The position numbers were made by a program, and so were the translations under genes. This document shows positions 4,636 through 62,811 of a stretch of 64,000 nt of DNA, piece after piece; within the stretch, counting starts at the first letter, position 1, and the number at the start of each line of letters is the position of its first letter. This DNA comes from Bacillota bacterium (GTDB taxonomy: Bacteria > Bacillota_I > Bacilli_A > RF39 > UBA660), in NCBI GenBank assembly GCA_015059495.1, contig SVAI01000001.1, forward strand, positions 1,055,811 through 1,119,810, in the 5' to 3' direction. The notes below the pieces were generated by a model. It did no database searches, was not told the origin of the DNA, and saw only the letters and a program-made list of their open reading frames with translations.

Positions 4636-4695
4636 TTGATTATATTTTTTTGTTTAAAAATAATTATTAATTATCATAACTTATATGGTGATACT

Positions 4696-5199
4696 ATGAA
4701 AAAGATAATAATTATACTATTTATAATATCTTCATTATATTTAATTAATAATAAAGATGAAATTATAATACCAAGTAATTCTATTAGATTTAGAATAATA
4801 GCTTCTTCTAATTCAATTGAAGATCAAAATCTTAAAAACACAATTAAAGAGGACCTAATTAATAATGTATTACCTACTCTAGACTATAATGATATTGATA
4901 ATTCTATAAATAAATCTATACCTATATTAAAAGATACCTTAAATAAATATAATACCTCTTATGATATATCTTATGGATATAACTATTTTCCTAAGAAATC
5001 ATATAAAGGTATAACCTATCCTTCAGGCAATTATAAGTCTTTAGTAATAACTTTAAATGAAGGTTTAGGTAATAATTTCTTTTGTGTATTATATCCACCA
5101 TTATGCTTAATTGATGATAATAATACAACAAACATTGAATACAAATCTTTAATATTAGATACCATAAATAACTATACACACAAAACTTCGAGGATATAA
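4696..5199 (+). CDS. spoIIR: Stage II sporulation protein R-like (SpoIIR)
   Basis: Signal peptide MKKIIIILFIISSLYL; conserved SpoIIR motifs IRFRIIASSNSIEDQNLKNTIKEDL and YPSGNYKSLVITLNEGLGNNFFCVLYPPLC; sits downstream of prmC exactly as spoIIR does in B. subtilis. Start at internal ATG 4696 rather than ORF-track 4636. Confidence 0.55.
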   Translation: MKKIIIILFIISSLYLINNKDEIIIPSNSIRFRIIASSNSIEDQNLKNTIKEDLINNVLPTLDYNDIDNSINKSIPILKDTLNKYNTSYDISYGYNYFPKKSYKGITYPSGNYKSLVITLNEGLGNNFFCVLYPPLCLIDDNNTTNIEYKSLILDTINNYTHKTSRI

Positions 5200-15452: not shown

Positions 15453-15481
15453 TAAAAAGATAGCATTTGCTATCTTTTTTT
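15453..15481. terminator. Bidirectional terminator between convergent genes
   Basis: aaaagatagcatttgctatctttttt palindrome with flanking A/T runs. Confidence 0.55.
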
Positions 15482-16847
15482 AAAATCTAAAATATATAAA
15501 TGGATTATAACTTCCAACTACTATAAATACTATTGTTAATAAGAATATAATTATTAACAAAAATTCAAAGCATTTAGATTCTTTAAATTTCTTAGGTAAT
15601 ATATTATAAGAGAATATAATACCTAGTATAAATGCTAATATATATCTAAATGAGAATATACCAGTATATAATAGATTACTTAATGAACCAAATCCATAAC
15701 ATCCAAATAATGTTTTAAATGCTATTCCTAGTTCATTAAAATCAGTTTCTCTAAATATTAACCATCCAATATTAATAATTATTAATGTAATAATATGATA
15801 AAAATATTTATTCTTAATCTTATCACTAATTAAGAACTTCTCAATTAATAATAGTATTCCATAATATAATCCCCATATAACAAAGTTCCATTCAGCACCG
15901 TGCCATAGACCTGTTAATATCCATACTACCATTATATTTCTAATATGTTTAAACTTAGTAGTCTTTGATCCTCCTAAAGGTATGTATACATAATCTTTAA
16001 AGAATGATGAAAGTGATATATGCCATCTTCTCCAAAAGTCTGTAATAGATTTAGCAGAATAAGGATATACAAAGTTTTCCATATATTTAAATCCACATAT
16101 TCTTCCTAAACCAATAGCCATATCACTATATCCACTAAAGTCATAATATATTTGTAATGTATAAGCAATTATTGCAATAACTACACCAATAAATCCTGTA
16201 TTTTGAATTCCATAATTAAATAAACTATCACATATAAATGCAACATTATTAGCTATTAATACTTTTTTAGCTAAACCTAATATAAATCTTTTAATACCAT
16301 AATTAATATCTTCACTAGTACTTGTTCTTTCGTTTAATTCTTTTTCAATGTCACTATATCTAACGATTGGACCAGCAATTAACTGTGGAAAAGCACTAAT
16401 GTATGTTGCTAATTTAATAATATTTTTTTGTACATTAACTTTCTTTCTATATACATCAATAACGTATGATAATATTTGAAATGTATAAAAACTAATACCA
16501 ATAGGTAATGATAAATTAATATTACTAATACTTAAATTAAATATTGAATTAATATTATTAATAAAGAAATTAACATATTTAAATGAGAATAATAATCCAA
16601 TATTAAATATAATTAATAATATTAATAAACCTTTACTTTTCTTTTTATCCATTAATAATGTTAAATAATAATTAACAATAATAGATATAATCATTAAGAA
16701 TATATAATAAGGTTCTCCCCATGCATAAAAGAGTAGTGAGAATAATAATAATATAATATTTCTAGTCTTTACTTTTTTAGCTATAAAATAGCAAAGAAGA
16801 AATAAAGGTAAAAACATAAACATAAATATTGTTGAAGAAAATACCAT
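15480..16847 (-). CDS. MBOAT-family membrane O-acyltransferase (AlgI/DltB/PatA-like)
   Basis: 455 aa polytopic; conserved MBOAT histidine region (WRRWHISLSSFFKDYVYIPLGG). Confidence 0.8.
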   Translation of the reverse strand: MVFSSTIFMFMFLPLFLLCYFIAKKVKTRNIILLLFSLLFYAWGEPYYIFLMIISIIVNYYLTLLMDKKKSKGLLILLIIFNIGLLFSFKYVNFFINNINSIFNLSISNINLSLPIGISFYTFQILSYVIDVYRKKVNVQKNIIKLATYISAFPQLIAGPIVRYSDIEKELNERTSTSEDINYGIKRFILGLAKKVLIANNVAFICDSLFNYGIQNTGFIGVVIAIIAYTLQIYYDFSGYSDMAIGLGRICGFKYMENFVYPYSAKSITDFWRRWHISLSSFFKDYVYIPLGGSKTTKFKHIRNIMVVWILTGLWHGAEWNFVIWGLYYGILLLIEKFLISDKIKNKYFYHIITLIIINIGWLIFRETDFNELGIAFKTLFGCYGFGSLSNLLYTGIFSFRYILAFILGIIFSYNILPKKFKESKCFEFLLIIIFLLTIVFIVVGSYNPFIYFRF

Positions 16848-16849
16848 AA

Positions 16850-18052
16850 TTATTTCACCTTCCTTGCTGTATTAAAATTATATATATCAAATAATTCTAC
16901 TTCTGCTTCTTGCATAAATAATACGTTTTTAATATTATTATCTTTTAAATATGATTCTAAATCTAAAATACCATCTTTAAACTTACCATATCTTAAATTA
17001 ACTACGTATGTATTCTTATAATTACTAGCTAATAAATAATCTACTTGCCATGCTAAAGAATCACTAATAATTAATAAATTATCATTTGATTTAGTTTTAT
17101 TATTTGTATAAATAACTTCATCGTATTGTCCATCAAAATAACCAACATAGTAATCATAAAAATCATTATTTTCTTTATAATTAAATGTTAATGGCTTAAA
17201 TTTTTTATCTTTTATATTAACTTCTAAAGTACCATCCTCTAAATAATTAGGTTTTATAATAGCTCCAAAGTGATCTTCAATGGTTTTAGATAATAAACTC
17301 TTAGCCATAGATCCATAATACAAAGAATATAAATCTTTTTCATATAAATCTTCTTCATCTATGTCTTTATCTATTTCTAAAAGATTTAATAAATCAATGT
17401 ATGCTTTTTTAGCTCCAACAGGATTTAAATGATGATCTGTTTTATAAAAATATCTATCGTATTCTTCAATATCATTTGCTTCTAATGCATCAATCTTAAA
17501 TCTGGAGTCAATCTTATTTCTAAATTCTTGATATTTATTATATATACCGTTAATATTTGTAAATGAATTTATTTCGTATCTAAGAGGCATATACATATAA
17601 AAGTTAACATCTTGATACTTATTAACTAGATTATTATAAAATTCTAATTGATTATTTAATCTCTTATCTAATTCATCTGAATTATAATTATTAACTATAT
17701 AGTAACGATAATAATTATCTGACTTATAAAATATTTTTTCGTTATCACTATTATTCTTTAAATATATATCTTTTAAATATAAACTATCTATATCAATAAT
17801 AGAATTATAATAAATACTATTTATATTTTGATATAAAGGAAAATAGTTATTAATTCTATTTTCAATGTTAGTTTCTAGACTCATTATCTTATCATATATT
17901 GGATCATTACTCTTCTCAACAACCTTCCAGTTATCTCCTTTATAAAAATCAATAACATGTAATGTTATTAATCCAGTTTTTACTACTACAAAAATAAGTA
18001 CAAAAAAAATAATAAATATAAATGTTTTACTTAATAAACTTAGTTTTTTCAT
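16850..18052 (-). CDS. AlgJ/PatB/DltD-like extracytoplasmic acyltransferase partner (DHHW family)
   Basis: N-terminal TM; TDHHLNPVGA matches the DHHW signature of AlgJ/PatB; 2-nt gap from the MBOAT gene. Confidence 0.55.
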   Translation of the reverse strand: MKKLSLLSKTFIFIIFFVLIFVVVKTGLITLHVIDFYKGDNWKVVEKSNDPIYDKIMSLETNIENRINNYFPLYQNINSIYYNSIIDIDSLYLKDIYLKNNSDNEKIFYKSDNYYRYYIVNNYNSDELDKRLNNQLEFYNNLVNKYQDVNFYMYMPLRYEINSFTNINGIYNKYQEFRNKIDSRFKIDALEANDIEEYDRYFYKTDHHLNPVGAKKAYIDLLNLLEIDKDIDEEDLYEKDLYSLYYGSMAKSLLSKTIEDHFGAIIKPNYLEDGTLEVNIKDKKFKPLTFNYKENNDFYDYYVGYFDGQYDEVIYTNNKTKSNDNLLIISDSLAWQVDYLLASNYKNTYVVNLRYGKFKDGILDLESYLKDNNIKNVLFMQEAEVELFDIYNFNTARKVK

Positions 18053-18146
18053 ATAATTACCTCTATAAATAGTTTACTATAAACTTGTAGAAAATAATAG
18101 TTTATTTTGTTATAATTAGTAATAGTTATCAAAGGAAGTGAGAAAT

Positions 18147-18920
18147 ATGAAAGTCTGTGTTTTAGCAAGTGGCAGCGAAGGAAATTCAACATATGTTGAA
18201 ACTAAAACTCATAAAATTTTAATTGATTTAGGTATGAATATGAAATACATTAAATCTAAATTAGAAGAACTTGAAGTTTCTCCAAATGAAATAGATACAG
18301 TTTTAATTTCCCACGTGCATAAAGATCACATCGGTTGTCTAGATTCATTTATTAAAAAATATGATCCTAATGTATATTTATCAAAGATAATGTATTCAGA
18401 ATTAGATAATAATAGTCTAATTAAAAGTTATGATAATATAGTATTCTTTGATACTGATTTTTATATAGATAATTTAAAAATAGAATTAATTAAAACATCA
18501 CATGATACAAAAGATTCAAGAGGATTTATCATAACAGAAAATGATAAGAGTGTAGTATATATTACAGATACTGGTTATTTAAATCAAAGATTCTTTAATA
18601 AATTAAAAGATAAGAACTTATATTTATTTGAATCTAATCATGATGTAGAAATGTTAATAAATGGTAAATACCCTAAATGGTTAAAAGATAGAGTAGTAGG
18701 TCCATATGGCCACTTATCTAATAAAGATGCATCTATCTATTTAACTAAATTAGTAGGGGAAAACACTAAAAAAATAGTATTAATGCACTTAAGTAAAGAA
18801 AATAATAAACCAGAAGTAGCATTAGATACTATAAAAGAAATATTTGATGAATACAACGTAGATTTTAAAAACATTACATACGCTAAACAAAGAGAGAAAT
18901 CGAGTGTGATGAAAATATGA
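18147..18920 (+). CDS. Metallo-beta-lactamase-fold hydrolase (YycJ/WalJ-like)
   Basis: MKVCVLASGSEGNSTYVE..., HVHKDH motif; followed by rlmH as yycJ...rlmH in B. subtilis; AGGAAG SD before ATG 18147. Confidence 0.75.
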   Translation: MKVCVLASGSEGNSTYVETKTHKILIDLGMNMKYIKSKLEELEVSPNEIDTVLISHVHKDHIGCLDSFIKKYDPNVYLSKIMYSELDNNSLIKSYDNIVFFDTDFYIDNLKIELIKTSHDTKDSRGFIITENDKSVVYITDTGYLNQRFFNKLKDKNLYLFESNHDVEMLINGKYPKWLKDRVVGPYGHLSNKDASIYLTKLVGENTKKIVLMHLSKENNKPEVALDTIKEIFDEYNVDFKNITYAKQREKSSVMKI

Positions 18921-29749: not shown

Positions 29750-29783
29750 ACAAAAAAAGATAGGAATAAATCCTATCTTTTAT
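29750..29783. terminator. Bidirectional terminator
   Basis: aaaaaaagataggaataaatcctatctttt palindrome between convergent genes. Confidence 0.55.
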
Positions 29784-31921
29784 TATTTATCATATAGATT
29801 TTCTTCTGTTGCAGTTCCTCTAGTTTTACCAGTTGGTGTCCAACCATCTAAACTTGGCTCACTGCTCCATTTGTATTCATATGTAGTAGATGTACTAGTT
29901 ACAGGTATTGGATCAGCACATTCTAGTGAGTGCTTAATACACTTATCTTTATCTAGAATATAACCATCTGGACAACTATAACCTTTTAATCCACCTTTAA
30001 TTGTTTTAATACATTTATCATCAACTAATTGTTCTTCAGCACTTTCACAATAATATGTAGTCTTATCTTCAACATAGATAGAACACTTAGTATTTTCTCC
30101 TTCTCCTTCTTTCTTATAACCAGTAGGACATTCATAAGCATATGTCTTCTTAGTTGTAGGAGTAGTATATTGATAACATGTAGTTCCTTCTCTTACATAA
30201 CCAGTAGGACATGTATATTGAGTTTCAGAAGTATGTGGAGTAGCTGGTTCTGATTTAATACATTGAGTTCCACTCATTGTATAACCAACAGGACAACTAT
30301 AACTTGTACTTGAATTATAAGTTGAATTAACAGTTCTTGTACATGTATTATTACTATTAATATTATATCCAACAGGACAACTATAACTTGTAGTTCCTGG
30401 AGTAGTAGAACAATTCTTATTAGCATATTCATAACATGTAGATGAAGATTGAGTTCTACCATCATTACATGTGTAATATGAACTTGATGTACTAGATGGT
30501 CTAGTCATATAACATGTAGAACCATTTCTATTACCTTGAGGACAATTGTAATTTGTTATAGCAGTATATGTACAATATGTATATGTACATCCTCTAGCAG
30601 TACAATTTTGACCTGTTTTAACTCTCTTAGATGAACTATTTTCATATTCAGATAATTGTCTAGATGAAGTTGTACAACTTGGATTAGACCAAGATCTTGT
30701 AGCGTTAGCAGCTTTAGTACATTGACTTCCACTTGGACTCCATCCACTAGGACAATTACCATAGTTTGTAGATCCTGCATGATATGAACCAGTATAAGTT
30801 CTTACACAGTTTCCACCATTATCTCTATATCCATAAGGACAATTACATGTAGTAGAACCACTTGTAGTTGTTCTAGTAGCATTAACAGTACTTGTACATC
30901 TTAATTGATCAGCACTGATTGTATATCCACTAGGACAAGTATAACTACCAGTCTTATGTTCAATTCTTTGAGTAGTAGCAATACATGATGTACCACTTAA
31001 TGTATATCCACTAGGACATTCATAAGTAGTAGTACCAGGTATTACAGTAGCATTTACATATTTATAACAAATGTTACCATTCTTTGTATATCCTTCAGGA
31101 CATACATCTTCACTTGAAACTTCAATTTTTTTAGCTTCAGCATATTTAGTATATCCACCACTCTTATTTTCTTTAGCATCAGTAGTTTGTACTACATCAT
31201 CAAAGTAAAGTGGAGTAGCAGGAATTGTTTCTCCTGTTTCATACTTATAACATACATTATTATCTTTAACATAACCTTCAGGGCAAGTATAAGTAGTGCT
31301 AGTCTTAGTTATAGCTCTCTTATATTCATATTCAACATTTCCACCCTTATCGTATTTAGAATCACCACTATTAATGATACTTGCATCTATTTCAATCCCA
31401 TCATCTTCATCTTTATCATTTTCAGATTTATCTTTAGATTGATTGTTTGAAGTAGATGAACCATTATCTTTTGATTCTCTATTATTATTTGAACTAGTAC
31501 TTGCAGTAGTTGTATTTAATGTTTCTAAAACATAATCAGTTTTATCATCACAAGATAATTGTACTTTTAAAACATAATTATTATTCTCAGTTTTAGTAAC
31601 TTGAGCAAATGAATTAGTAGTACTACATTCATTATTATCTTTATCAGTAAATTCTGTTATTAATTTCTTATCTAACATATCTTGTAGCTTAATAGTATTT
31701 GAACTACCAGTTTTGCTAGGTAAGTTTTCATTAACAAAATACTTTTCAGCTACATCCTTCATATTATTTAAATTTTCATTATAAACTCTATTATAAAATG
31801 TATCTAATTTAGGAATAGGGAATAACCAAATAAATACTAATATTAATAATATTACAGCAATTAATTTAAGTATTAATCCCTTCCAATCAATTTTAATTTT
31901 AACATTATCCTCATAATACAT
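29783..31921 (-). CDS. Bitopic surface protein with S/T/N-rich linker and 13 tandem CPxGY-x(5-10)-C two-cysteine repeats
   Basis: 712 aa; N-terminal TM ILKLIAVILLILVFIWLF; repeats such as CPEGYVKDNNVCYKY, CPSGYTLSGTSC, CPVGYTMSGTQC, CPTGYVREGTTCYQY; third gene of a minus-strand operon. Confidence 0.5.
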   Translation of the reverse strand: MYYEDNVKIKIDWKGLILKLIAVILLILVFIWLFPIPKLDTFYNRVYNENLNNMKDVAEKYFVNENLPSKTGSSNTIKLQDMLDKKLITEFTDKDNNECSTTNSFAQVTKTENNNYVLKVQLSCDDKTDYVLETLNTTTASTSSNNNRESKDNGSSTSNNQSKDKSENDKDEDDGIEIDASIINSGDSKYDKGGNVEYEYKRAITKTSTTYTCPEGYVKDNNVCYKYETGETIPATPLYFDDVVQTTDAKENKSGGYTKYAEAKKIEVSSEDVCPEGYTKNGNICYKYVNATVIPGTTTYECPSGYTLSGTSCIATTQRIEHKTGSYTCPSGYTISADQLRCTSTVNATRTTTSGSTTCNCPYGYRDNGGNCVRTYTGSYHAGSTNYGNCPSGWSPSGSQCTKAANATRSWSNPSCTTSSRQLSEYENSSSKRVKTGQNCTARGCTYTYCTYTAITNYNCPQGNRNGSTCYMTRPSSTSSSYYTCNDGRTQSSSTCYEYANKNCSTTPGTTSYSCPVGYNINSNNTCTRTVNSTYNSSTSYSCPVGYTMSGTQCIKSEPATPHTSETQYTCPTGYVREGTTCYQYTTPTTKKTYAYECPTGYKKEGEGENTKCSIYVEDKTTYYCESAEEQLVDDKCIKTIKGGLKGYSCPDGYILDKDKCIKHSLECADPIPVTSTSTTYEYKWSSEPSLDGWTPTGKTRGTATEENLYDK

Positions 31922-34783: not shown

Positions 34784-34798
34784 TAGGGCATAAATGGG

Positions 34799-35168
34799 GT
34801 AGCTTATTGGTTTCGACAAGCTAGTCTTATGATAGATGTTTGCAAGTAGTCCGATATGACTTAAAACTGTCAAATTAAAATTAAATGACAAAAATGAAAG
34901 CTCTTTCGGAGCATTCACTCCTGTATTTGCCTAATTAAAGGTTGGGAGTTCTCTATCTTAGGTTCACCTATAGCTTAAGAATAGGGATCATATTTATAGG
35001 TTATATATTATAATTGATTAGGTTATAATACGAATCTTACTAATCTTAGTTAAAGAGTAGGTGTGTGATAGCCGGCGCTTTAATGAAATAATAATTATCA
35101 CTAAACTTGTAGATGATGTCTAATCATATAGTTTGGACAGGAGTTCGATTCTCCTCTACTCCACCAAA
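34799..35168 (+). ncRNA. ssrA: Transfer-messenger RNA (tmRNA, SsrA)
   Basis: 5' GGGGTAGCTTATTGGTTTCGACA and 3' GGACAGGAGTTCGATTCTCCTCTACTCCACCA; acceptor stem GGGGTAG/CTACTCC with the G3:U wobble alanine determinant; T-arm GTTCGATTC; in-frame tag reading ...gac aaa aat gaa agc tct ttc gga gca ttc act cct gta ttt gcc TAA (34887-34934) gives (A)DKNESSFGAFTPVFA. Confidence 0.85.
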
Positions 35169-45539: not shown

Positions 45540-47507
45540 ATGAAGAAAAAAGAAGATTTTGTAAAGACATCATTTCCTTATATTATTTTAGGATTAGTAA
45601 TTATCATTGCATTCCTATTTTATAATAATACAAGATTTGAAGTACATGAATTAACTACTGGTGAATTAATGAGTGCTATTAAAGATTCTAAAGTATCTGA
45701 AATAACAATTACGCCTAAAAGTAGTGAATCAGTATATTATATAACTGGTAAATTAACTGATTATAAAGAAGGAGAATCATTTACTTCTAAAGTAGTAGAA
45801 GAAGAAGTATCATCAGTTGTTGAATATAAAAATAACAACAATTTAAAATCATATGATACTAATAAAGATCCAGGATCATCTACTATATTATATATAGTTG
45901 TTAATGTAGTACCAATTGTAATTTTAGCTTTTGCAGCTTACTTACTATTTACTAAACTTGCTATGTCTAATAACAAATCAATGGATTTTGGTAAGAGTAG
46001 AGCAAGATTAGAAGAAGGCGGAAAAGTTAAATTTAAAGATGTAGCTGGATTGAAAGAAGAAAAAGAAGAAGTAGAAGAAATCATAGATTTCTTAAAGAAT
46101 CCAAAGAAATTCCAAAAAATGGGTGCAAGAATACCTAAAGGTGTATTACTTGTAGGACCTCCAGGAACAGGTAAAACATTACTTGCTAAAGCTGTTGCTG
46201 GTGAAGCAAATTGTCCATTCTACTTTATCTCAGGTTCAGACTTCGTTGAATTATTCGTAGGTGTTGGTGCCTCTCGTGTTAGAGATATGTTTAAACAAGC
46301 TAAACAAAGTGCTCCATGCTTAATATTCATCGATGAAATTGATGCTGTTGGTAGAGAAAGAGGAACTGGACTTGGTGGTGGACATGATGAAAGAGAACAA
46401 ACACTAAACCAATTATTAACTGAAATGGATGGTTTTGGTGCTAACGAAGGAATCATAATCATGGCTGCAACAAACAGACCTGACGTTTTAGACCCAGCAC
46501 TTTTAAGACCAGGACGTTTTGATAGACAAATCACTGTATCTCTTCCTGATTCAAATGAAAGAGAACAAATCTTAAAAGTACATGCACAAGATAAGATCTT
46601 AGCTAAAGATGTTAACTTAGCTGCAATATCAAAAAGAACACCAGGATTTAGTGGAGCTGATTTAGAAAACTTATTAAATGAAGCTGCATTACTTACTGTA
46701 AGAAGAAATAAAGACGCTATCACAATGGATGAAATTGATGAAGCTACAGATAGAGTTATCTTAGGACCTGCTAAGACATCAAGAAAGATAACTGAAAAAG
46801 AAAAGAGATTAGTTGCAATCCACGAATCTGGACATGCAGTAATCGGACTTAAACTTCCTGATGCTGAAGAAGTTCACAAGATAACAATCATACCAAGAGG
46901 TATGGCTGGCGGATATACAATGATGCTTCCAAAAGAAGAACACATTGGTATTTCTACAAAAGAAGAATTAGAATCTCGTATCACTGGATTACTTGGTGGT
47001 AGAGCATCTGAAGAATTATTCTTAGGTCAAATTACTACTGGTGCATCTGATGACTTTAAAAAAGCAACATCAATTGCACGTGCAATGGTAACTGAATATG
47101 GTATGTCAGAACTAGGAACTATTCAATTTGAACAAAAGAGTGAAGGAGTATTCTTAGGTAGAGATTATAATAAATCTAAGAACTTCTCTGACCAAGTTGC
47201 TTTAGAAATAGATAAAGCTGAAAGAAAGATTATTGATGAATGTTATGCTAAGGCTAAAAAAATCTTAAAAGAAAATGAAAAATTAGTTCATTTACTTGCA
47301 GATGCTTTAGTAGAATATGAAACATTAACTAAAGAACAAATTGAATCACTAGTTGAAACTGGAACTTTTAATCCAAATGATGAAGCAACATCAAATGAAA
47401 CAACTATGTTAAAACTAAAAGAAGTTGCTAAAGCTAAAGGTATTAAAGGTTATACTAAAATGACTAGAGAAGAACTAGAACAAAAAATAGAAGAATCAGA
47501 TAAATAA
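45540..47507 (+). CDS. ftsH: ATP-dependent zinc metalloprotease FtsH
   Basis: Two TM, AAA Walker [12 protein letters not shown], zinc motif HESGHA. Confidence 0.95.
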
Positions 47508-47576
47508 TCTGATTCTTTTTTAATTGATAAAAGTATATATTTTTGATAAAATCTATTTTAGAATAGAGGAAATTAA

Positions 47577-49532
47577 ATGAAGAATAAGGGATTTACTTTA
47601 ACTGAAATAATAGCAGTAATAGTTATACTTGGAATACTAATTGCTATAGGTACTCCAGTATACTTTACAATATCTAATAATACAAAACAAAAAGAACTTA
47701 ATAACAAACTTGAATATTTAAAAGCACAAGCTATTAAATATGCTGAAGAAAATACTATTGATACATCTAAAACTATTGCAGCAGGAGCTTTAGTATATGA
47801 TGGTTATGTAGTAGCAGATAAATATGTAAAAGAACAAGGTGAAGAAATTCCATTTATAATTAATCCGGCAGACGATGATGATAATCTAGCCTGTAGAATT
47901 ATTAATATTGGAGTTAATGATTATGACTACACAGCTAAAGTAACAGATGATAGCAATTGTGACTTAATTAATGAAGATACTTTTGCAAATGAAATAGGCG
48001 TTAAAGTATATAAATATTACAATAATACTTTAACTGAATTAATAGATATAAAAGAAGAGAATAAGAACTGGGTTAATACTGATGTAGCAGTTGTAATTAA
48101 TCCAACTTATGAAAATATTTTAAGTACAAGAATAACTCATCAAGGAAAAACAATTGAAGTAAATAAAAACAATATTTTAACTGAACCATCAATAGGATTA
48201 AGAATTAATCAAGCTTATTCTAATGTAGTTATTGTTACAGCAGCTACTGTATTAAAAGATGAAATACATGTAGCAGTTCAAACAAAAGACTCAATTAAAA
48301 ATGCTGTAATTAAAATTAATATAGATAAAGAAGAACCAGGAATTAAATCAAGTGCATATGACGGATGGACTAAAAAAGATGGTAAGAATGCCAAAGCATA
48401 TGTAAGCGATGGTAATGGATCAGGTGCTAAATATGTATATATTACTGCTGAAAATAATATAGGTATGAAAAATATTTATAATAGATTTGAAGTAATAGAT
48501 GAAGTAGCTACTATTAATCATGGATATGATTTATATGAAGGTGTTAATACACCATTATCAAATGGCACATATTACTTATGGGCAGAAGATGAAGTAGGAA
48601 ACGTAACTTCATATTCAACTGAATTAGTAATATCTAATTCTGATGCTATAGCACCAACATGTGAAATAAGAAATGATAATTCAGTATGGAAAACTGAAAC
48701 AAGAAAAATTATTTATGGATGTGTTGATAATGAATCAGGATGTTCAGTTGACAACAGTGGATATTCTAAAGATGTTAATTATTCAACTAAAAAACAAATA
48801 ATGGAACAAACAACACTAGTTGATAATACAGGAAATGAAACAGTTTGCCCTGAAAGAATAGTTGATGCATATGTTGATATAGATAATCCATATATTGAAT
48901 CTATAAGTGTTCAATCGCAAGATAGTAGATTTAATACTACTAATACAAACGTTGTAGTAAAAGCTAAAGATGATCACAGTGGATTAAAATCAGTTTGTGT
49001 ATTAATAGATGATAAAAAAATAGAACATTGTAAATGGGTAGATGTAGATGCTACAACTATTGATACAATTCATAACGAGGGACCTATATCATATACATTT
49101 AAAGTACCAACTACTATTGGTAGATATGACAGAAAATCTCCAGCATCATATCAAGTATATGCATATGTAAAAGATATTTTAGGACATGTAAGTGAAATTA
49201 AATCTAAGTCATATGCTACATATAAATACTGTGATGCCCAAACAAGAACTGGTGAGTCTGGTTATGGAGGCTGTTCAGCAGATTGTGGTGGCGGATCACA
49301 ATCAAGAACTGTATATTATAGTGATAAGTACTTCTCAAATCAAACTTGTCCAAATGGTTCTGAAAGTCAAAGCTGTAATACTCACGATTGTCCATCAAGC
49401 AGCGAAAGTGATTGCTGTACTTCTGCATCAGAAACAGACGGACATGGTTCTGGACCTGGACACTGGGGATGTACATGTGCAGACGGTTCATGGCATGGTG
49501 GATGTAGTGGACCTGGAGCATCAGATTGCTAA
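47577..49532 (+). CDS. Large type IV pilin-like (class III signal) protein with Cys-rich thrombospondin-type-1-like C-terminus
   Basis: N-terminus MKNKG|FTLTEIIAVIVILGILIA matches prepilin cleavage/methylation motif (G/FTLxE); C-terminus GCSADCGGGSQSR...CPNGSESQSCNTHDCP resembles a TSP1 repeat; 651 aa. Confidence 0.5.
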   Translation: MKNKGFTLTEIIAVIVILGILIAIGTPVYFTISNNTKQKELNNKLEYLKAQAIKYAEENTIDTSKTIAAGALVYDGYVVADKYVKEQGEEIPFIINPADDDDNLACRIINIGVNDYDYTAKVTDDSNCDLINEDTFANEIGVKVYKYYNNTLTELIDIKEENKNWVNTDVAVVINPTYENILSTRITHQGKTIEVNKNNILTEPSIGLRINQAYSNVVIVTAATVLKDEIHVAVQTKDSIKNAVIKINIDKEEPGIKSSAYDGWTKKDGKNAKAYVSDGNGSGAKYVYITAENNIGMKNIYNRFEVIDEVATINHGYDLYEGVNTPLSNGTYYLWAEDEVGNVTSYSTELVISNSDAIAPTCEIRNDNSVWKTETRKIIYGCVDNESGCSVDNSGYSKDVNYSTKKQIMEQTTLVDNTGNETVCPERIVDAYVDIDNPYIESISVQSQDSRFNTTNTNVVVKAKDDHSGLKSVCVLIDDKKIEHCKWVDVDATTIDTIHNEGPISYTFKVPTTIGRYDRKSPASYQVYAYVKDILGHVSEIKSKSYATYKYCDAQTRTGESGYGGCSADCGGGSQSRTVYYSDKYFSNQTCPNGSESQSCNTHDCPSSSESDCCTSASETDGHGSGPGHWGCTCADGSWHGGCSGPGASDC

Positions 49533-49544
49533 AAGGAGAATAAT

Positions 49545-50213
49545 ATGAAGAAGAAATTAATAATAGTATTTGTAATAATAATTATTGCTTTAGCAGGATG
49601 CTTTATTTACTTTAAAATTAATAATAATAAATATTTATTTAAAGCATATCTAGAGGAACATAATGGTAACTATACACTAGTCATAAGAAATAAAGATTAC
49701 TTTAGTTTTAATGAAATGTGGAAAGTAGAAGATTTAACAAGAACAAATGGAAATTTCAAAATGCTTCCATGGACACTAGATTCTAGAATTAAAAAAATAA
49801 CAAAAGTAGATATTCAAGACAACATAAAAGTAGATTCACTTGCGTTATGGTTTTATGGATTTGAAAATCTAGAAGAAATAAAAGGATTAGATAAACTAGA
49901 TACATCATCATTAACTAATCTTTCAGCGGTATTTTACAATTGCAAATCTCTAAAAGAATTAGACTTAAGTATGTTGGATACAAGAAAAGTAACACTAACT
50001 GACAATATGTTTGCTAACTGTGAAAATTTAACTACTATATATGTTGGTGAAAATTGGAATATGGATAAAGTTGAAGAATCAACAGATATGTTTAAAGGAT
50101 GTACAAATCTAGTCGGACCAAATCAAACTGAATACAATGAATATGTTGTAGATAAATCATTTGCACAAGTAGATGATTTAGATAATGCTGGTTATTTAAC
50201 ACTTAAAAATTAA
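49545..50213 (+). CDS. BspA-type leucine-rich-repeat (LRR_5) lipoprotein
   Basis: Lipobox LAGC after signal peptide; repeats LTNLSAVFYNCKSLKELDLS..., MFANCENLTTIY, MFKGCTNL. Confidence 0.5.
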   Translation: MKKKLIIVFVIIIIALAGCFIYFKINNNKYLFKAYLEEHNGNYTLVIRNKDYFSFNEMWKVEDLTRTNGNFKMLPWTLDSRIKKITKVDIQDNIKVDSLALWFYGFENLEEIKGLDKLDTSSLTNLSAVFYNCKSLKELDLSMLDTRKVTLTDNMFANCENLTTIYVGENWNMDKVEESTDMFKGCTNLVGPNQTEYNEYVVDKSFAQVDDLDNAGYLTLKN

Positions 50214-50215
50214 CA

Positions 50216-50250
50216 TTAAAAATACTATATTAAAAATAGTATTTTTTTTA
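50216..50250 (+). terminator. Rho-independent terminator
   Basis: aaaatactatattaaaaatagtatttt followed by a T-run. Confidence 0.55.
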
Positions 50251-54597: not shown

Positions 54598-55776
54598 ATG
54601 AAGAAATTATACAAGATGATGATTATATCTACATTTATTTTATTGCCATTAACAAATGTTACAGCTAAAGAATATAATAGGTTATCAGTTAACGAATTTA
54701 TTGATTCCATAAACAAAAGTACATTATTTGATTACGAAGTAAAACAAGGAACTAGATCTAAGGCACCAACAATTACTTCGTCAGCATCAATTGATAACAA
54801 TATTTTTAAATATAAGGTAACATATGATGAAAAAGAATATGTGTCATTATTTAAATATGATTTAAAAAATAATACTTTAACATATGTTAGAGAAAACAAA
54901 AAAGATGACTCAGATAAGAGTTTTGAGGAGTCAATAATAGACATTCTAGCTGAGGCAACTGGTGAAGGAACTAATGAAGAAATAGTAAAATCGTTAATAA
55001 ATTTTGACTATGAAAAATGTGATATAGAAAATTTAGGTTATTGTGTTCAAGGAAAAGAAAATGAATCAACAATAATAGTTGAACTATCTGACAAAATGGC
55101 AACTGAAGTGTTAAAATTAAAATCAAAGGTTAACAATAAGACTGCTGATCCAAGATTTCAAGCATATATTGACTTAGTTAACAATTCGAAATATATTAAA
55201 TCTATCAATGATAAGTTCAAAGAAAATGAATCAATGAGTGTTTATGGAGTAACTTATGGTAATGAAGCCTTTATTCAAACAAATGAAGGAAATGATGAAA
55301 ATATATTACTTAATATAACTTATAATCCAGAACTTAATACGATAAAGACTATAGAAAAAACTGATGGAATAAACAGTTTTACAAATGCAGGGTTAATATT
55401 AATATTATACTTTGAAGAGTTTTCATCTTACTCACTTGATGAAGTAGTTAATTCACTAGCAAATACTACAGAAGGTAAAGTGTGTGACATAGAAAACAAA
55501 GGTATATGTGTTAAATATTTTGATGAAACTGAAACGCAAGCCTCTATAGAATTGGAATTATCAGATAAAGCTATAAATAATTATTTTTCTAAAAAGGTTA
55601 ATATAGAACCTACTGAGAACAAAGAAGAATCAAAAGAAGATGAAGAATCAGAAGAACCTATTAATAATCCGGAAACAGGAGCATTTGCAAACTTTGGTTT
55701 AATATCATTGATATCCATTATAGCTATCATAGCAATAGCATTTGTAATAAAGAAAAAGAAATTTTATAACATTTAA
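54598..55776 (+). CDS. Secreted surface protein with C-terminal sortase-type sorting signal (NPETG + hydrophobic + KKKK) and internal duplication
   Basis: Signal peptide; two copies of a module containing C-D-I-E-N-x-G-x-C-V (KCDIENLGYCVQG / VCDIENKGICVKY) each ending ...ELSDK; C-terminal NPETGAFANFGLISLISIIAIIAIAFVIKKKK. Confidence 0.45.
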   Translation: MKKLYKMMIISTFILLPLTNVTAKEYNRLSVNEFIDSINKSTLFDYEVKQGTRSKAPTITSSASIDNNIFKYKVTYDEKEYVSLFKYDLKNNTLTYVRENKKDDSDKSFEESIIDILAEATGEGTNEEIVKSLINFDYEKCDIENLGYCVQGKENESTIIVELSDKMATEVLKLKSKVNNKTADPRFQAYIDLVNNSKYIKSINDKFKENESMSVYGVTYGNEAFIQTNEGNDENILLNITYNPELNTIKTIEKTDGINSFTNAGLILILYFEEFSSYSLDEVVNSLANTTEGKVCDIENKGICVKYFDETETQASIELELSDKAINNYFSKKVNIEPTENKEESKEDEESEEPINNPETGAFANFGLISLISIIAIIAIAFVIKKKKFYNI

Positions 55777-55808: not shown

Positions 55809-55833
55809 TTAAAATACTTATCAGGTGATATCT

Positions 55834-56661
55834 ATGTTTAAAAAGATATATGTAGAAATAACAAACAATTGTAATCTCAATTGTCCGTTTTGTATTGGTA
55901 ATGATAGACAAAAAGAATTTATAACTGAATATAAATTTAATTTGTTATTAAATAAACTAAAAGGACATACTAAATACTTATATTTTCATTTAATGGGTGA
56001 ACCACTTATACATCCAGAAATTAATAAATTAATAGATATAGCAAGTAAAGATTATAAAATAAATATAACTACTAATGGTTATTTTATAAATAGAATTAAA
56101 GATAATAAAAATATTCATCAAGTTAATATATCATTACATTCATTTGATGATAAAAAGAATAAAACTCTAGATGAATACCTAAGCAATATATATGAAGGTG
56201 TTGATAATTTATTAGTTAATAACACTATAATTAATTATAGATTATGGGTTAATAATAAATATAAAGAAGAAATAATTAAATCAATCGAAAATAGATATAA
56301 TGTAACAATAAATGGTAATACTAAAATTAAAGATCATTTATATTTAGAGTTTGAAACTGAGTTTATTTGGCCTAATTTAAATAATCATTATTGTAAAGAA
56401 GAAGGTTCTTGCCAAGGTCTAAGAACTCATATTGGTATTTTAGTAGATGGTTCAGTAGTACCATGTTGTCTAGATTATAATGGTAATCTAAAACTAGGCA
56501 ATATTTATGAACAAGATTTAGATGAAATATTAAATCAACAAAGAGCAAAAGATATGATTAAAGGATTTCAAAATAATAAAAAAGTAGAGAAATTATGTCA
56601 ACATTGTAATTTCTATGATAGAATAATGCAGAAAAAAGGAAGTGATAACAATGTCAAATGA
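55834..56661 (+). CDS. Radical SAM enzyme with C-terminal SPASM/twitch-like Cys cluster
   Basis: CNLNCPFC (Cx3Cx2C) near N-terminus; C-terminal [32 protein letters not shown]...LCQHC; start overlaps uvrA start region. Confidence 0.6.
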
Positions 56662-60353: not shown

Positions 60354-60434
60354 CATTATAAACGTAAAGAACTAATGGTAAAAATTTAAATGTTTTAAAA
60401 TATATGTTAAAGTAATAATAAGGAAGTGTATATA

Positions 60435-61043
60435 ATGGAAATTAAACAAAAATATGAAGAATTATTTGAAAAATTAGCTGATATGGAAGTAGAAGAATTA
60501 GCACAATTTTTTAACTGCTCGCCAAACGATATATTATTTGACGACATAACAGATGAAAGTGAATTTAATAGTATTCCATATAAAGTAATATGTGGAGATA
60601 TTGAATTATCAGATCAAGCGTTAGTCGAAGATTTTGGCAATATAGAAGCAGTATTAGGAAGTATAAATATAGGAAGATATCCTAGTTTAGAATCAGATAT
60701 TACTTCATTAGGAAAACTAAAATACGTATATGGTGACCTACGAGCAGGATTCTCTCAACTATGTAACCTAGGCGACTTATTAGCTGTAGGTGGATGTGTT
60801 GATTTAGAAAGTGCTGATCTTAAAAGTACTGGATCTTTAGAATATGTTGGAGAAGATTTAATTATACGTGATAATAGTGATTTAAAAGATGCAAGTAGTT
60901 TAAAATATATAGGAAAAAATTTAGATTCACAAGGTACACAAATTTCATCATTTGATAATTTAGAGTATGTTGGTGGAAGTATTGATAAGGATGAAGATAC
61001 AGTAATAGATGCTAGCGTTACAAATCATGGCAGAATAAGATAA
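60435..61043 (+). CDS. Hypothetical acidic protein with about 20-aa tandem repeats (L[KE]Y[VI]G.DL...)
   Basis: AAGGAAG SD; repeats LKYVYGDLRAG..., LEYVGEDLIIRD..., LKYIGKNLDSQG..., LEYVGGSIDKDE... Confidence 0.35.
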   Translation: MEIKQKYEELFEKLADMEVEELAQFFNCSPNDILFDDITDESEFNSIPYKVICGDIELSDQALVEDFGNIEAVLGSINIGRYPSLESDITSLGKLKYVYGDLRAGFSQLCNLGDLLAVGGCVDLESADLKSTGSLEYVGEDLIIRDNSDLKDASSLKYIGKNLDSQGTQISSFDNLEYVGGSIDKDEDTVIDASVTNHGRIR

Positions 61044-61104: not shown

Positions 61105-61920
61105 ATGAATCCAGTAATGTTTACATTTGGTAAATTTGAAATTAGATGGTATTCAGTACTTATATTAATTGGAGTTCTTTTAGCATATGAACTAGCAGCA
61201 TTTGAAGGTAAAAAATATAAAGCTCCTAAAGATTTTATATTTAACTTAACTTTCTGGTCTGTAATATTTGGACTTATTGGTGCTAGATTATATTATGTAG
61301 TATTTAACTGGCAATTATATTCTCATGACTTAACTTCTATATTTAAGTTCTGGGAAGGTGGACTTGCAATCCATGGTGGTATATTTGCAGGTTTAGTTAC
61401 AATGTACTTATACTGTAAGAAATATAAAGTTAGATTACTAAAAATAACTGATATAGCAGTACCAAGTTTATTAATTGCTCAAGCAATAGGTAGATGGGGT
61501 AACTTCTTTAACTCTGAAGCTCATGGAGCAGCAACTACTTTAGCAGAACTAAAAGAATCAAAAATAATACCAGAATTCGTTATCAATGGAATGAATATAA
61601 ATGGTATATATTATGTACCTACATTCTACTATGAATCTATTTGGTGTTTATTAGGATTTGTAATAGTACTAATAATAAGAAATAGAAAGAAAACTAAACT
61701 AGGTACTTTAACAGCATTCTATTTAATGTGGTATAGTTTTGGTAGATTCTTTATCGAAGGATCTAGAACTGATTCACTAATGATATTTGGACTTAAAGCA
61801 GCTCAAATAGTATCAGTACTATTATTTATAATTGGTTTAGTTATCATAATGATAAACTCAAGAAAGAGTGCATTTGATGATAATTATCAAGAAACAACAT
61901 TTGATGAAGTAAGATTTTAA
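61105..61920 (+). CDS. lgt: Prolipoprotein diacylglyceryl transferase
   Basis: Polytopic; LAIHGG signature (GGLAIHGGIFAG), conserved R/W. Confidence 0.8.
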   Translation: MNPVMFTFGKFEIRWYSVLILIGVLLAYELAAFEGKKYKAPKDFIFNLTFWSVIFGLIGARLYYVVFNWQLYSHDLTSIFKFWEGGLAIHGGIFAGLVTMYLYCKKYKVRLLKITDIAVPSLLIAQAIGRWGNFFNSEAHGAATTLAELKESKIIPEFVINGMNINGIYYVPTFYYESIWCLLGFVIVLIIRNRKKTKLGTLTAFYLMWYSFGRFFIEGSRTDSLMIFGLKAAQIVSVLLFIIGLVIIMINSRKSAFDDNYQETTFDEVRF

Positions 61921-62052: not shown

Positions 62053-62811
62053 ATGATTAATGTATTTATGGTGGATAGCAATGAATCTACTATTAAAGAA
62101 GTTAAGCAGTATTTTAGTAACCATAGCAGTATATGTATTAAAAACACTTGTAAAGATGGTTTAGAGGCCATTAATGAACTTAAAACTAATAAGTATGACG
62201 TATTACTATTAGATCCAATAATATCAAAAATAGACGGTATAGAACTATTAAAATTAATGTCTAATAATAATATAAATACTAAAGTAATTATTTATAGTGA
62301 TTATTTTAATCACAATATAGTATCATCTATTTATAAATTTGATATATCATTTTATTTATTAAAAGATACTAATAAAGATATATTAGAACAAAGAATAATT
62401 GATGCTACTAAATTAAACTATATAGAATTAGAATTTAATGATAATTCAATTAGTAAGAAAACATCTAAACTATTACATGATTTAGGTATGCCATCTCATA
62501 TAAAAGGATATCAATATATTAGGGATGCTATTATTATGATGTATAATGATAAATCTTATATTGGAGGTATAACTAAAATGTTATATCCAGATATAGCTAA
62601 AAAATATGAAACAACACCATCACGTGTTGAAAGAGCAATAAGACATGCTATTGAAGTATCATGGACTAGAGGTGATTATGACTTAATGGATGAGATATTT
62701 GGTCACTCTGTAGACTTTGATAGAGCTAAACCAACTAACTCAGAATTTCTAGCAACTCTAGCAGATAAACTTAATTTAGATGAGAAAATAAATAATAGAA
62801 ATTACATTTAA
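62053..62811 (+). CDS. spo0A: Stage 0 sporulation protein A (response regulator with Spo0A_C DNA-binding domain)
   Basis: Receiver domain (VDSNE, LLLDPII); C-terminal MPSHIKGYQYIRDAIIMMYND...ITKMLYPDIAKKYETTPSRVERAIRHAIEVSWTRG...KPTNSEFLATLADKL is a near-consensus Spo0A_C domain. Confidence 0.75.
   Translation: MINVFMVDSNESTIKEVKQYFSNHSSICIKNTCKDGLEAINELKTNKYDVLLLDPIISKIDGIELLKLMSNNNINTKVIIYSDYFNHNIVSSIYKFDISFYLLKDTNKDILEQRIIDATKLNYIELEFNDNSISKKTSKLLHDLGMPSHIKGYQYIRDAIIMMYNDKSYIGGITKMLYPDIAKKYETTPSRVERAIRHAIEVSWTRGDYDLMDEIFGHSVDFDRAKPTNSEFLATLADKLNLDEKINNRNYI

Follow-up and report, generated by a model that had tools for sequence, protein, structure and literature searches.

A 651-residue modular type IV pilin-like protein with an Ig-like stalk and a divergent thrombospondin type 1 repeat, probably a pilus-displayed adhesin, in a Bacillota bacterium

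Within the 64,000-nucleotide stretch of Bacillota DNA analyzed here (the window), one gene encodes a 651-aa protein, beginning with MKNKGFTLTEIIAVIVILGILIAIGTP, that is probably a modular type IV pilin displayed on a pilus as an adhesin tipped with a thrombospondin type 1 repeat (TSR). Modular pilins are defined by an N-terminal pilin motif accompanied by one or more domains without a specific tie to pilus biology (Raynaud et al. 2021, PMC8179133). With its pilin motif, Ig-like domains, and TSR the protein fits this definition, and a pilus-displayed adhesin of this described kind is its most likely identity. A sequence-only reading of the window had arrived at an adhesin displayed on a pilus encoded elsewhere; that interpretation is supported, pilus display and adhesion being themselves what we infer.

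The gene, its domains, and the neighboring elements are listed in Table 1. The hairpin 3' of ftsH was also detected in a separate scan, none of 200 shuffled sequences folded equally well, and it would insulate the pilin operon against transcription from upstream. The promoter candidate that follows matches 10 of 12 consensus positions and had the top plus-strand score in the region. As described earlier, a second gene starts 12 nt past the pilin stop codon; judged from this arrangement, the two appear to form a two-gene operon encoding the pilin and a DUF285/PARCEL lipoprotein, which the second hairpin (equaled in folding by 2 of 200 shuffles) would close. Between two strains, the pilin gene is the most divergent among 8 to 10 neighboring genes, with 91.2% amino acid identity versus 93 to 100%, and despite that divergence its dN/dS is 0.09; it is under purifying selection. 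An artifact of overlapping open reading frames (ORFs; 49192 to 49548 on the plus strand and 49216 to 49521 on the minus strand) was rejected, as both lie inside a gene with this dN/dS value.

Table 1. Positions of the pilin-like gene, its predicted domains, and adjacent elements in the window
Feature	Position	Strand	Basis or detail
Terminator-like hairpin then U-run, 3' of ftsH	47489..47520	+	dG -14.2 kcal/mol, z -4.98
Sigma-70-like promoter candidate, TTGATA, 17-nt spacer, TAAAAT, TG extension	47524..47552	+	Consensus match only
Ribosome-binding site AGAGGA, ATG 6 nt downstream	47565..47570	+	Sequence reading
CDS, 651-aa modular type IV pilin-like protein	47577..49532	+	dN/dS 0.09 vs 91% ortholog
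Class III (prepilin) leader MKNKG, predicted cleavage after Gly5	47577..47591	+	N_methyl and TIGR02532 above cutoffs
Pilin module, aa 6-135	47592..47981	+	AlphaFold, PDB profile search
Ig-like beta-sandwich domain 1, aa 136-252	47982..48332	+	AlphaFold; Foldseek to tandem Ig arrays of adhesins
Ig-like domain 2, aa 253-356, invariant IDKExP and SDGNGSG motifs	48333..48644	+	AlphaFold, homolog alignment
Ig-like domain 3, aa 357-437, Cys362/382/389/424, DUF7743/Big_13-type	48645..48887	+	AlphaFold, profile comparison
Ig-like domain 4, aa 438-548, Cys474/485	48888..49220	+	AlphaFold
Divergent TSR, aa 549-606	49221..49394	+	Profiles, AlphaFold, Foldseek
C-terminal 45-aa Cys-rich knot	49395..49529	+	Cys613, 614, 632, 634, 643, 651
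Ribosome-binding site AAGGAGA of second gene, within 12-nt spacer	49533..49539	+	Sequence reading
CDS, 222-aa DUF285/PARCEL leucine-rich-repeat lipoprotein	49545..50213	+	Profile matches
AT-rich terminator-like hairpin and U-run	50218..50249	+	dG -7.2 kcal/mol, z -3.49

The prepilin N-terminus proposed earlier on the basis of Gly-1, Phe+1, and Glu+5 was borne out by profile searches, in which N_methyl (PF07963) scored 25.3 bits (cutoff, 21.2; E value, 1.1e-5) and TIGR02532 scored 28.2 (cutoff, 16.3). The N-terminus reads MKNKG/FTLTEIIAVIVILGILIAIGTP, so that the leader is followed by FTLTE, and Gly14 and Pro22 (mature numbering) are also present. A six-frame regular-expression scan of the whole 64 kb showed the start of the 651-aa ORF to be the only ORF start with a prepilin motif. 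None of 36 homologs deviates at G5, F6, T7, L8, or E10, and G-1, F+1, E+5, and P22 do not vary in a homolog set whose mean column identity is just 22 to 32%. By these features the protein carries the class III signal peptide of a type IV pilin. A sortase-dependent (LPXTG) pilin or adhesin was rejected, as the C-terminus (...GGCSGPGASDC) contains no LPXTG motif and no hydrophobic stretch. AlphaFold predicted a long N-terminal helix and a small beta-sheet head, as in type IV pilins, with a hydrophobic alpha1-N, a helix spanning aa 8 to 59, and strands within aa 65 to 134 forming the head, where Cys106 and Cys128 are a conserved pair; the pLDDT per 10-residue block was 73 to 91 for aa 11 to 140 and 57 for aa 1 to 10. 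A profile of aa 1 to 140 gave 20 matches in the PDB, all of them type IV pilins or pseudopilins (best, 1.7e-9), with the alignment to Streptococcus sanguinis PilE1 reaching position 94 of the profile.

Behind the pilin head, the AlphaFold model contains four beta-sandwiches, with block pLDDT values mostly between 75 and 94 over aa 11 to 550 (lower blocks, 73 at aa 21 to 30 and 67 at aa 511 to 520). Foldseek likened this body to the extender regions of bacterial adhesins (6xi3 and SiiE), and an OmpL47-type domain matched weakly at aa 455 to 492. The Ig-like unit at aa ~355 to 440 is found again, in as many as 35 copies, in giant surface proteins that reach 6,619 aa; these DUF7743/Big_13 proteins have ordinary signal peptides, no pilin module, and no TSR. 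As the unit also occurs in such giant non-pilin proteins, the stalk can work without a pilus, which bears on a reading that we regard as rather unlikely: the pilin N-terminus may be a membrane anchor and export signal only, of a stalked surface adhesin that is never polymerized. Its alpha1 helix, cleaved or not, would then stay in the cytoplasmic membrane, and the four Ig-like domains would cross the wall and expose the TSR. The very large size of the protein, with family members of up to 1,700 aa, speaks for this reading as does the shared Ig-like repeat, but the invariant Glu+5, Gly-1, and Pro22 serve peptidase recognition and filament packing rather than plain anchoring, and those modular pilins that have been examined by experiment are subunits of pili (PMC8179133).

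The protein contains 20 cysteines, 12 of which lie in the last 100 residues (552, 566, 570, 591, 600, 605, 613, 614, 632, 634, 643, and 651); the 11 reported previously for its end are obtained by counting from GCSADC onward. The resemblance of this tail to a TSR, also proposed earlier, held for the CSxxCGxG motif, the six cysteines, and the profile matches to the PDB and failed for the Trp and Arg ladders. The motif CSADCGGGSQSR...C...CNTHDCP is present, with a core that reads CSADCGGG, and the first six of the 12 cysteines follow the spondin/C6-TSR1 type of spacing. In full-length scans TSP1_spondin was matched with an E value of 1.6e-4 and a score of 22.3 (cutoff, 41) and TSP1_ADAMTS with 17.2 (cutoff, 23.8), and PF00090 was absent from the matches listed; on the isolated 57-aa segment PF00090 scored 24.0 (cutoff, 21.6). 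All 39 PDB matches of the TSR family profile were TSR-containing chains, with best E values of 3.5e-12 for thrombospondin-1, 1e-6 for F-spondin, and 5.8e-6 for C6 TSR1, the last of which aligned with the profile from end to end, N-terminal Cys and DKY[FY] motif included. The tail has a pLDDT of ~45 (low confidence) in the full-length AlphaFold model, and the isolated segment, modeled from its own alignment, has a pLDDT of 85.7 and a predicted elongated three-stranded fold. This isolated model, a check that had been suggested, retrieved only TSRs as its top 37 PDB matches in Foldseek (TM, 0.45 to 0.63 query normalized and up to 0.71 target normalized), with E values that were weak (0.035 to 1), as expected for a length as short as 57 aa.

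No Trp ladder (WxxWxxW) was found in the TSR, where the strand A equivalent TRTGESGYGG has no Trp (only Tyr564), nor an Arg ladder (RxRxR), as strand B (SQSRTVYY) has one Arg, Arg577; a single Trp is retained in some homologs, and the segment is net acidic. With no Trp ladder and a single strand B Arg, ligand binding like that of eukaryotic TSRs cannot be assumed. The same two features, the full-length Pfam scores under the gathering cutoffs, and the unrelated Cys-rich tails of most family members could also be explained if the likeness were convergent, a chance CxxxCGxG pattern in a small disulfide-rich module, with the tail being a variable Cys-rich cap and the motif possibly biasing AlphaFold toward the TSR fold. 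We consider this very unlikely given the profile E values, the exclusively TSR-containing PDB matches, and a cysteine number and spacing of spondin/C6 type with DKY[FY] common to C6 TSR1. In addition, 11 of 16 family TSR segments match TSP1_spondin individually, and the homolog P0026 carries ~5 tandem TSR copies with the motif WSxCSxxC(G/N)GGxQSR. On this evidence, aa 549 to 606 appear to be a real but divergent TSR.

Like the eukaryotic TSRs of C6 (TSR1), F-spondin (TSR4), TRAP, and thrombospondin-1, this segment has ~55 aa, CSxxCGxG, six Cys in the spacing with an N-terminal Cys (spondin/C6), a terminal CxxxxCP, and a predicted fold of three strands; unlike them it lacks the Trp and Arg ladders, is net acidic and bacterial, and sits on a pilin carrier. 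No O-fucosylation or C-mannosylation machinery is to be expected. Published TSR structures of the F-spondin/TRAP type would predict group-2 disulfide pairing, in which the N-terminal Cys is bridged. A literature search found no dedicated paper on prepilins combined with thrombospondin type 1 or on bacterial TSRs, and the 57-aa TSR profile matched two proteins in a word-indexed search, a number that is no gauge of bacterial TSR frequency. The C-terminal knot belongs to no known family, is variable among homologs, and has a dN/dS of 0.32, the highest in the protein, compared with 0.12 for the TSR. A low-complexity tail, the artifact that the sequence-only reading had named as a danger to its proposal, was rejected because conserved Cys columns and purifying selection were seen in the tail. 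Even numbers of cysteines, which would fit full disulfide pairing in an extracytoplasmic protein, were counted for 24 of the 26 full-length close homologs and for 63 of the 84 wider representatives.

The gene for the 651-aa pilin has no pilus genes next to it. The earlier statement that the window lacks pilB, pilC, and pilD agrees with Pfam scans of nearly all larger ORFs, in which T2SSE, T2SSF, and Peptidase_A24 were not found, and with tblastn searches of all six frames using PilB, PilC, and PilD queries from a relative. The proposed search for machinery elsewhere in the genome succeeded in part. A PilB/GspE-type ATPase (426 aa) is encoded ~348 kb from the pilin gene on the same 946-kb metagenomic contig, Ga0214506_1000003, and a prepilin peptidase, PilC, and a major pilin were not found within the 64-kb window or ±10 kb of PilB. 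The pilin gene is also carried by four contigs longer than 1 Mb. In a relative whose PilB is ~88% identical (by cluster membership), three tandem family members adjoin PilB, and in another relative PilB, PilD, and PilC are encoded together. The loci of the PilB representatives P0319 and P0215, which are from other organisms, show the pilus genes of this clade to be dispersed between housekeeping genes. The PBP of the L088 organism shares 25% identity with the PBP here, the two being probably paralogs, and this value is no gauge of relatedness. For the view of the N-terminus as an anchor only, it counts that most family loci have no adjacent pilus genes and that long pilin genes often precede a gene for a small membrane-anchored protein instead; PilB on the same contig and the three family members next to PilB in the relative count against it.

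Scores of the ATPase are close for GspE (478 bits) and PilB (461 bits), and its ComGA score is lower (274 bits; cutoff, 300). Together with weak N-terminal matches of the 651-aa protein to ComGC, ComGD, GspG, and GspH models, these scores would be compatible with a minor pseudopilin that belongs to a pseudopilus of the competence (Com) or type II secretion-like kind and acts in DNA uptake or protein export, not in adhesion. This assignment is highly improbable, as the ComG and Gsp matches span the shared alpha1 only and fall far under the equivalog cutoffs, the gene lies outside any comG-like operon, the Ig stalk, TSR, and Cys knot are the anatomy of a binding protein, and the expansion of the family to several paralogs in a genome, whose tips are hypervariable, is unlike core pseudopilins.

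The second gene encodes a 222-aa protein with the N-terminus MKKKLIIVFVIIIIALAGC and a putative lipobox, LAGC, at aa 16 to 19; an lgt gene is present in the window at 61105 to 61920. It had been described as a BspA-type leucine-rich-repeat lipoprotein, of which the lipobox and a match to LRR_5 (31.8; cutoff, 27.7) stood, but DUF285 (PF03382; 50.8 bits; cutoff, 25) and PARCEL (TIGR02167; 49.5; cutoff, 30; three copies) fit better, with repeats spanning aa ~85 to 208. By these scores the BspA-type label is acceptable, and DUF285/PARCEL is the better name. PARCEL repeats, DUF285, and a lipobox are shared with the PARCEL/DUF285 lipoproteins of Mollicutes and Listeria (Roske et al. 2010, PMC2996958), from which the 222-aa protein differs in being short, in having a single repeat block, and in sharing a transcript with a pilin gene. 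It is 97% identical in ortholog strains, where it always adjoins the pilin gene, and conservation of this neighbor is limited to the nearest relatives; DUF285 modules joined directly to pilin N-termini are present in the relatives' proteins L023 (603 aa) and L070 (475 aa). A small membrane-anchored protein is often encoded directly 3' of long pilin genes across the family loci, and the idea that these form one homologous family was rejected, as BLAST similarity was detected in one pair only.

The family to which the 651-aa protein belongs is large and uncharacterized, with no studied member, and comprises 754 clusters (E value of 1e-30 or lower) of Cys-rich pilins of 500 to 1,700 aa. Several paralogs are present per genome, their tips are hypervariable, and most members bear other, unrelated Cys-rich tails. 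We take the architecture IPR012902-IPR000884-IPR000884 to be a pilin with two TSP1 repeats and IPR005046 to be DUF285. One protein of the former architecture and at least 13 proteins with IPR012902-IPR005046 were listed in the 2021 InterPro survey (PMC8179133, Dataset S1). The principle of a module grafted onto a pilin, as well as the pilin-TSP1 architecture, is already on record, and no current view is overturned. Modular pilins, of which S. sanguinis PilB is an example, are polymerized via the pilin module and mediate adhesion (PMC8179133); in S. sanguinis, PilB has a vWA module and PilC a lectin module (PMC8179133; PMC9934059). The 651-aa protein shares with these two a monoderm Bacillota host and a predicted role in adhesion. 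It differs from them in the four Ig-like domains that part the effector from the pilin head, in an effector that is neither vWA nor lectin and consists of a TSR and a Cys knot, in a gene located outside a pil operon, in its 20 Cys, and in being known from sequence alone. Enterotoxigenic Escherichia coli (ETEC) CofB and Vibrio cholerae TcpB likewise have a pilin module followed by beta-repeat or beta-sandwich domains and a proposed site at the pilus tip (PMC8179133), but these are diderm type IVb proteins that are encoded within the pilus operon and form trimers, and no sequence similarity was detected between them and the 651-aa protein.

For the preferred reading, a pilus-displayed adhesin, we infer cleavage, incorporation into a pilus, location at the tip, and adhesion through a ligand. 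A prepilin peptidase would remove the MKNKG leader and methylate Phe1, and the hydrophobic alpha1 helix would first hold the protein in the membrane until it is built into a filament by type IV pilus machinery whose genes lie elsewhere in the genome. Because of its bulk, it would most likely be a low-abundance subunit, probably placed at the tip. The four Ig-like domains would form a rigid stalk that holds the disulfide-bonded TSR and the small Cys knot at a distance from the filament, and these two may be the ligand-binding, adhesive end. The DUF285/PARCEL lipoprotein from the same transcription unit may provide a second surface-exposed binding module. In the long-pilin family, which would be diversifying fast, the conserved N-terminal part may act as a carrier and the variable Cys-rich C-termini may confer different specificities.

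A bolder proposal, which we hold to be quite unlikely as a whole, is that the giant, disulfide-rich modular pilins of uncultured low-GC gut Bacilli make up a repertoire that is very large and so far undescribed, with hundreds of clusters at 50% identity, tandem arrays, and several paralogs in each genome. The hypervariable tips of these pilins would include animal-type domains such as the C6/spondin-like TSR, which may have come from hosts and may mimic or bind host matrix, and each pilin may work together with its own small membrane-anchored protein from the gene directly 3', here the DUF285 lipoprotein. If the reading of the 651-aa protein as a pilus-displayed adhesin is true, an uncultured gut Bacillota lineage would equip its type IV pili with interchangeable adhesive tips, the one here being an animal-type thrombospondin repeat on an Ig-like stalk. 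The catalogue of modular pilins would then grow by a very large family without a studied member, and concrete candidates for host- or particle-binding proteins would be available in organisms known only from metagenomes.

The ORF at 47577-49532 (+) encodes a 651-aa protein that starts with MKNKGFTLTEIIAVIVILGILIAIGTP, and the prepilin motif at this N-terminus scored above the curated thresholds of two libraries, with 25.3 bits for PF07963 (cut-off, 21.2) and 28.2 for TIGR02532 (cut-off, 16.3). The class III signal proposed by the sequence-only reading was thus upheld, and its underlying observations were borne out in every particular, namely, the ORF, the motif, the cysteines, the 12-nt gap to the next gene, and the lack of pilus genes in the window. 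Phe1, Glu5, Gly14, and Pro22 (mature numbering) are all present, and 12 of the 20 cysteines lie within the last 100 residues. A six-frame regex scan found no second ORF-initial prepilin motif in the whole 64 kb. In the AlphaFold model (36-sequence alignment; mean pLDDT, 79.5), a helix spanning aa 8-59 is followed by a small beta head up to about aa 135, with a conserved Cys106/Cys128 pair. A profile of aa 1-140 built from 26 family members matched 20 PDB chains, all of which are type IV pilins or pseudopilins; the best match was geopilin (E = 1.7e-9), the alignment with S. sanguinis PilE1 (1.2e-7) ran to profile position 94, and PilA, MshA, PpdD, GspG, and Neisseria PilE were also recovered. 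As Gly-1, Phe+1, Glu+5, and Pro22 are invariant in very divergent homologs, there is indirect indication that processing and assembly of the long pilin are under selection. The main rival explanation, a membrane-anchored stalk adhesin whose pilin N-terminus would mediate nothing beyond export and anchoring, is considered unlikely.

The model was confident across aa 1-550, with means of 10-residue blocks past the first ten residues mostly ranging from 75 to 94 and two weaker blocks at pLDDT 73 and 67. This part includes four beta-sandwich domains, and a Foldseek search of the PDB with the model returned tandem Ig-like arrays, such as those of complement MG domains, of the Salmonella adhesin SiiE, and of a large adhesion protein (6xi3, extender region). 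The Ig-like unit at aa ~355-440, assigned by Pfam to DUF7743/Big_13, is repeated, in as many as 35 copies, in giant surface proteins with ordinary signal peptides (P0067, P0068, P0116, P0117, and others), the largest of which measures 6,619 aa.

As the Cys-rich tail was of low confidence in the full-length model, it was handled separately, using alignments of homologous segments from 15 to 16 family members. These included P0026, a homolog with about five tandem copies resembling the thrombospondin type 1 repeat (TSR), with the motif WSxCSxxC(G/N)GGxQSR. The profile from the first alignment (A3) matched 39 PDB chains at an E value of ≤1, all TSR containing, while the second (A4) matched thrombospondin-1 best (3.5e-12), followed by F-spondin (9.6e-7), complement C6 (5.8e-6), TRAP (2.3e-5), and BAI1 (7.8e-5). 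Alignment with C6 TSR1 was end to end, including the extra N-terminal cysteine, and a DKY[FY] motif is common to both. The TSP1-like character attributed to the tail from sequence also held for the window protein itself, as its isolated 57-aa segment passed PF00090 (24.0; cut-off, 21.6); when family segments were scanned singly, 11 of the 16 matched TSP1_spondin. AlphaFold modeled the isolated segment at pLDDT 85.7, and its 37 best Foldseek PDB matches were all TSRs (semaphorin-5A, BAI1, properdin, TSP-1, F-spondin, ADAMTS13, C6, and UNC5), with TM scores of 0.45 to 0.63 query normalized and up to 0.71 target normalized and weak E values (0.035 to 1). No tryptophan ladder was found in aa 549-606, where Tyr564 is the only counterpart, and the arginine ladder is cut down to Arg577; we therefore file this segment as a putative divergent, noncanonical TSR of the spondin/C6-TSR1 cysteine type. 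The last 45 residues, here termed the terminal knot, contain six more cysteines and gave no known match.

Selection was measured against one 91% identical ortholog, in the related locus L005. The dN/dS ratio was 0.09 across the entire pilin gene, 0.12 in the TSR, and 0.32 in the terminal knot. The pilin protein is the most divergent product of ten neighboring genes (91.2% identity versus 93 to 100%), with changes clustering in aa 500-600. Among close full-length homologs, 24 of 26 have an even number of cysteines, as do 63 of 84 wider family representatives; even counts are what full disulfide pairing predicts. The low dN/dS of the TSR and the even cysteine counts identify the tail as a constrained, folded module, probably disulfide bonded, and not a low-complexity artifact.

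A word-indexed search identified 63 relatives of the 651-aa protein, nearly all of which are 600 to 1100 aa long, have GFTLxE at the N-terminus, and end in a Cys-rich tail. When 1.84 billion representatives were searched exhaustively with HMMER, 754 clusters were obtained at an E value of ≤1e-30 and 3,978 at ≤1e-10. Among 135 new top representatives, 84 start with the prepilin motif (257 to 1,747 aa, all but three being at least 499 aa), and the remainder are giant surface proteins with ordinary signal peptides. Conservation is concentrated in the N-terminal ~360 to 440 residues, with invariant IDKExP and SDGNGSG motifs, and the C-terminal Cys-rich parts vary from subgroup to subgroup; outside the window's subgroup and the P0022-24 subgroup, the TSR occurs only in P0026 and a few others. 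Species-representative genomes with relatives are uncultured MAGs of human, rabbit, chicken, goat, and rumen origin, which bear the labels Tenericutes, Bacilli, Erysipelotrichaceae, or Bacillota. The closest, CAMOFW01 (91% identity), has at least three paralogs.

Features of the pilin unit, the encoded protein, and related loci
Feature	Location	Details
Strong hairpin and U-run	47489-47520	After ftsH; dG -14.2, z -5.0
Promoter-like site	47524-47552	Upstream of pilin gene
Ribosome-binding site	Upstream of pilin gene	AGAGGA
Ribosome-binding site of second gene	Inside 12-nt spacer	AAGGAGA
AT-rich hairpin and U-run	50218-50249	After second gene; dG -7.2, z -3.5
Beta-sandwich domain 1	About aa 136-252	AlphaFold model
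Beta-sandwich domain 2	About aa 253-356	AlphaFold model
Beta-sandwich domain 3	About aa 357-437	AlphaFold model
Beta-sandwich domain 4	About aa 438-548	AlphaFold model
Small anchored protein after long pilin	L087:12197-12649	
Small anchored proteins after long pilins	L088:12167-12490, 15190-15630, 17920-18327	
Small anchored proteins after long pilins	L035, L043, L050, L059, and others	

The second gene (49545-50213) begins 12 nt past the pilin stop codon. Its product has a lipobox (LAGC) and matched DUF285 (50.8 bits), PARCEL repeats (49.5 bits; three copies), and LRR_5 (31.8; cut-off, 27.7), in agreement with the BspA-type LRR lipoprotein initially suspected. Based on the flanking hairpins, the promoter-like site, and the ribosome-binding site in the spacer, the two genes look like an insulated bicistronic unit amid housekeeping genes; as the GC content of the unit (about 26 to 29%) matches the rest of the window, recent insertion is not suggested. 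The lipoprotein gene adjoins the pilin gene in all close relatives (97 to 100% identity) and is lacking in more distant family members. At about 13 distinct loci, another small N-terminally anchored protein (107 to 280 aa) is encoded 2 to 15 nt after the long pilin, and only one pair of these showed mutual BLAST similarity; it appears that the position of the partner is conserved and its sequence is not. In two relatives, the module encoded separately in the window is grafted straight onto a pilin (L023:2234-4045, 603 aa, N_methyl plus six DUF285 stretches; L070:234-1661, 475 aa). IPR005046 in the modular-pilin survey is presumably DUF285. That InterPro survey includes 13 or more proteins with IPR012902-IPR005046 (PMC8179133). 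Such fusions to pilin N-termini form a Rosetta-stone pattern that links DUF285 modules functionally to pilus display, not the two window proteins to each other.

Nearly all of the larger window ORFs were covered, by Pfam scan or by the annotation of an identical public contig, and these have housekeeping and sporulation functions (ftsH, tilS, parAB, dnaB, spoIIR, spoIID, spo0A, lgt, and others). None of them is a T2SSE, T2SSF, or Peptidase_A24 gene, and tblastn of the window with a relative's PilB, PilC, and PilD gave no match. In L088, a T2SSE ATPase directly adjoins three tandem long-pilin paralogs. Using this ATPase as a query and listing cluster members, a 426-aa member (P0321) was located at about 197.3 to 198.6 kb of JGI contig 3300021318|Ga0214506_1000003 (946,033 bp; L175:10001-11281). 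The pilin gene of the window is on this same contig, at about 545.1 to 547.1 kb. By NCBIfam models, P0321 belongs with the assembly ATPases of the GspE (478 bits) and PilB (461 bits) type, with lower scores as ComGA (274 bits) and PilT (183 bits); a GspE/PilB-type ATPase is thus encoded outside the window, as the sequence-only reading expected of pilus genes. No PilC or PilD was found within 10 kb of it. In the clade (loci L175, L172, and L089-L091), PilB neighbors hrcA-grpE-dnaK and RNase Y; another relative has PilB, PilD (Peptidase_A24), and PilC (T2SSF) together beside hrcA-grpE-dnaK, and a third has PilB and a 155-aa pilin beside ruvAB. Pilus genes in these organisms are thus dispersed between housekeeping loci, and the lack of them in the window means little.

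Other genes in the window also stood out. In a 712-aa protein (29783-31921, -), a membrane anchor at the N-terminus precedes about 20 short CPxGY...C cysteine-pair repeats; this protein, which matched complement-type cEGF (PF12662, 31.6 bits), is the window's second animal-like Cys-rich surface protein. A 205-aa ORF (60426-61043, +) matched the Receptor L-domain (LRR-like) weakly, at the cut-off (E = 2e-4), and may encode another small repeat surface protein. A 392-aa ORF without a Pfam match (54598-55776, +), which directly precedes a radical SAM/SPASM gene (55825-56661, +), is absent from the strain with the 91% ortholog (L005) and thus marks a strain-specific insertion or deletion. The tmRNA (34796-35166, +) encodes the tag DKNESSFGAFTPVFA, whose -FA end, we assume, resembles mollicute tags. 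Together with spoIIR (4636-5199), spoIID (8135-8998), spo0A (62053-62811), and the "uncultured Tenericutes" label of the closest MAG, this makes the source lineage look like a spore-forming relative of Mollicutes within Bacilli.

A literature search found no description of an architecture combining a pilin head, four Ig-like domains, a divergent TSR, and a Cys knot, or of the size of the long-pilin family. The combination IPR012902-IPR000884-IPR000884 we take to be a pilin with two TSP1 repeats. One such protein is listed in Dataset S1 of the modular-pilin survey (PMC8179133). Modular pilins, in which a pilin module is fused to modules not specific to pilus biology, are polymerized via the pilin module, are probably tip exposed, and contribute directly to adhesion (Raynaud et al. 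2021, PMC8179133); the 651-aa protein, known from its sequence, falls within this definition. On balance, the initial interpretation is supported, and the protein is, with moderate confidence, most likely a pilus-displayed adhesin with a TSR-type binding end, probably located at the tip.
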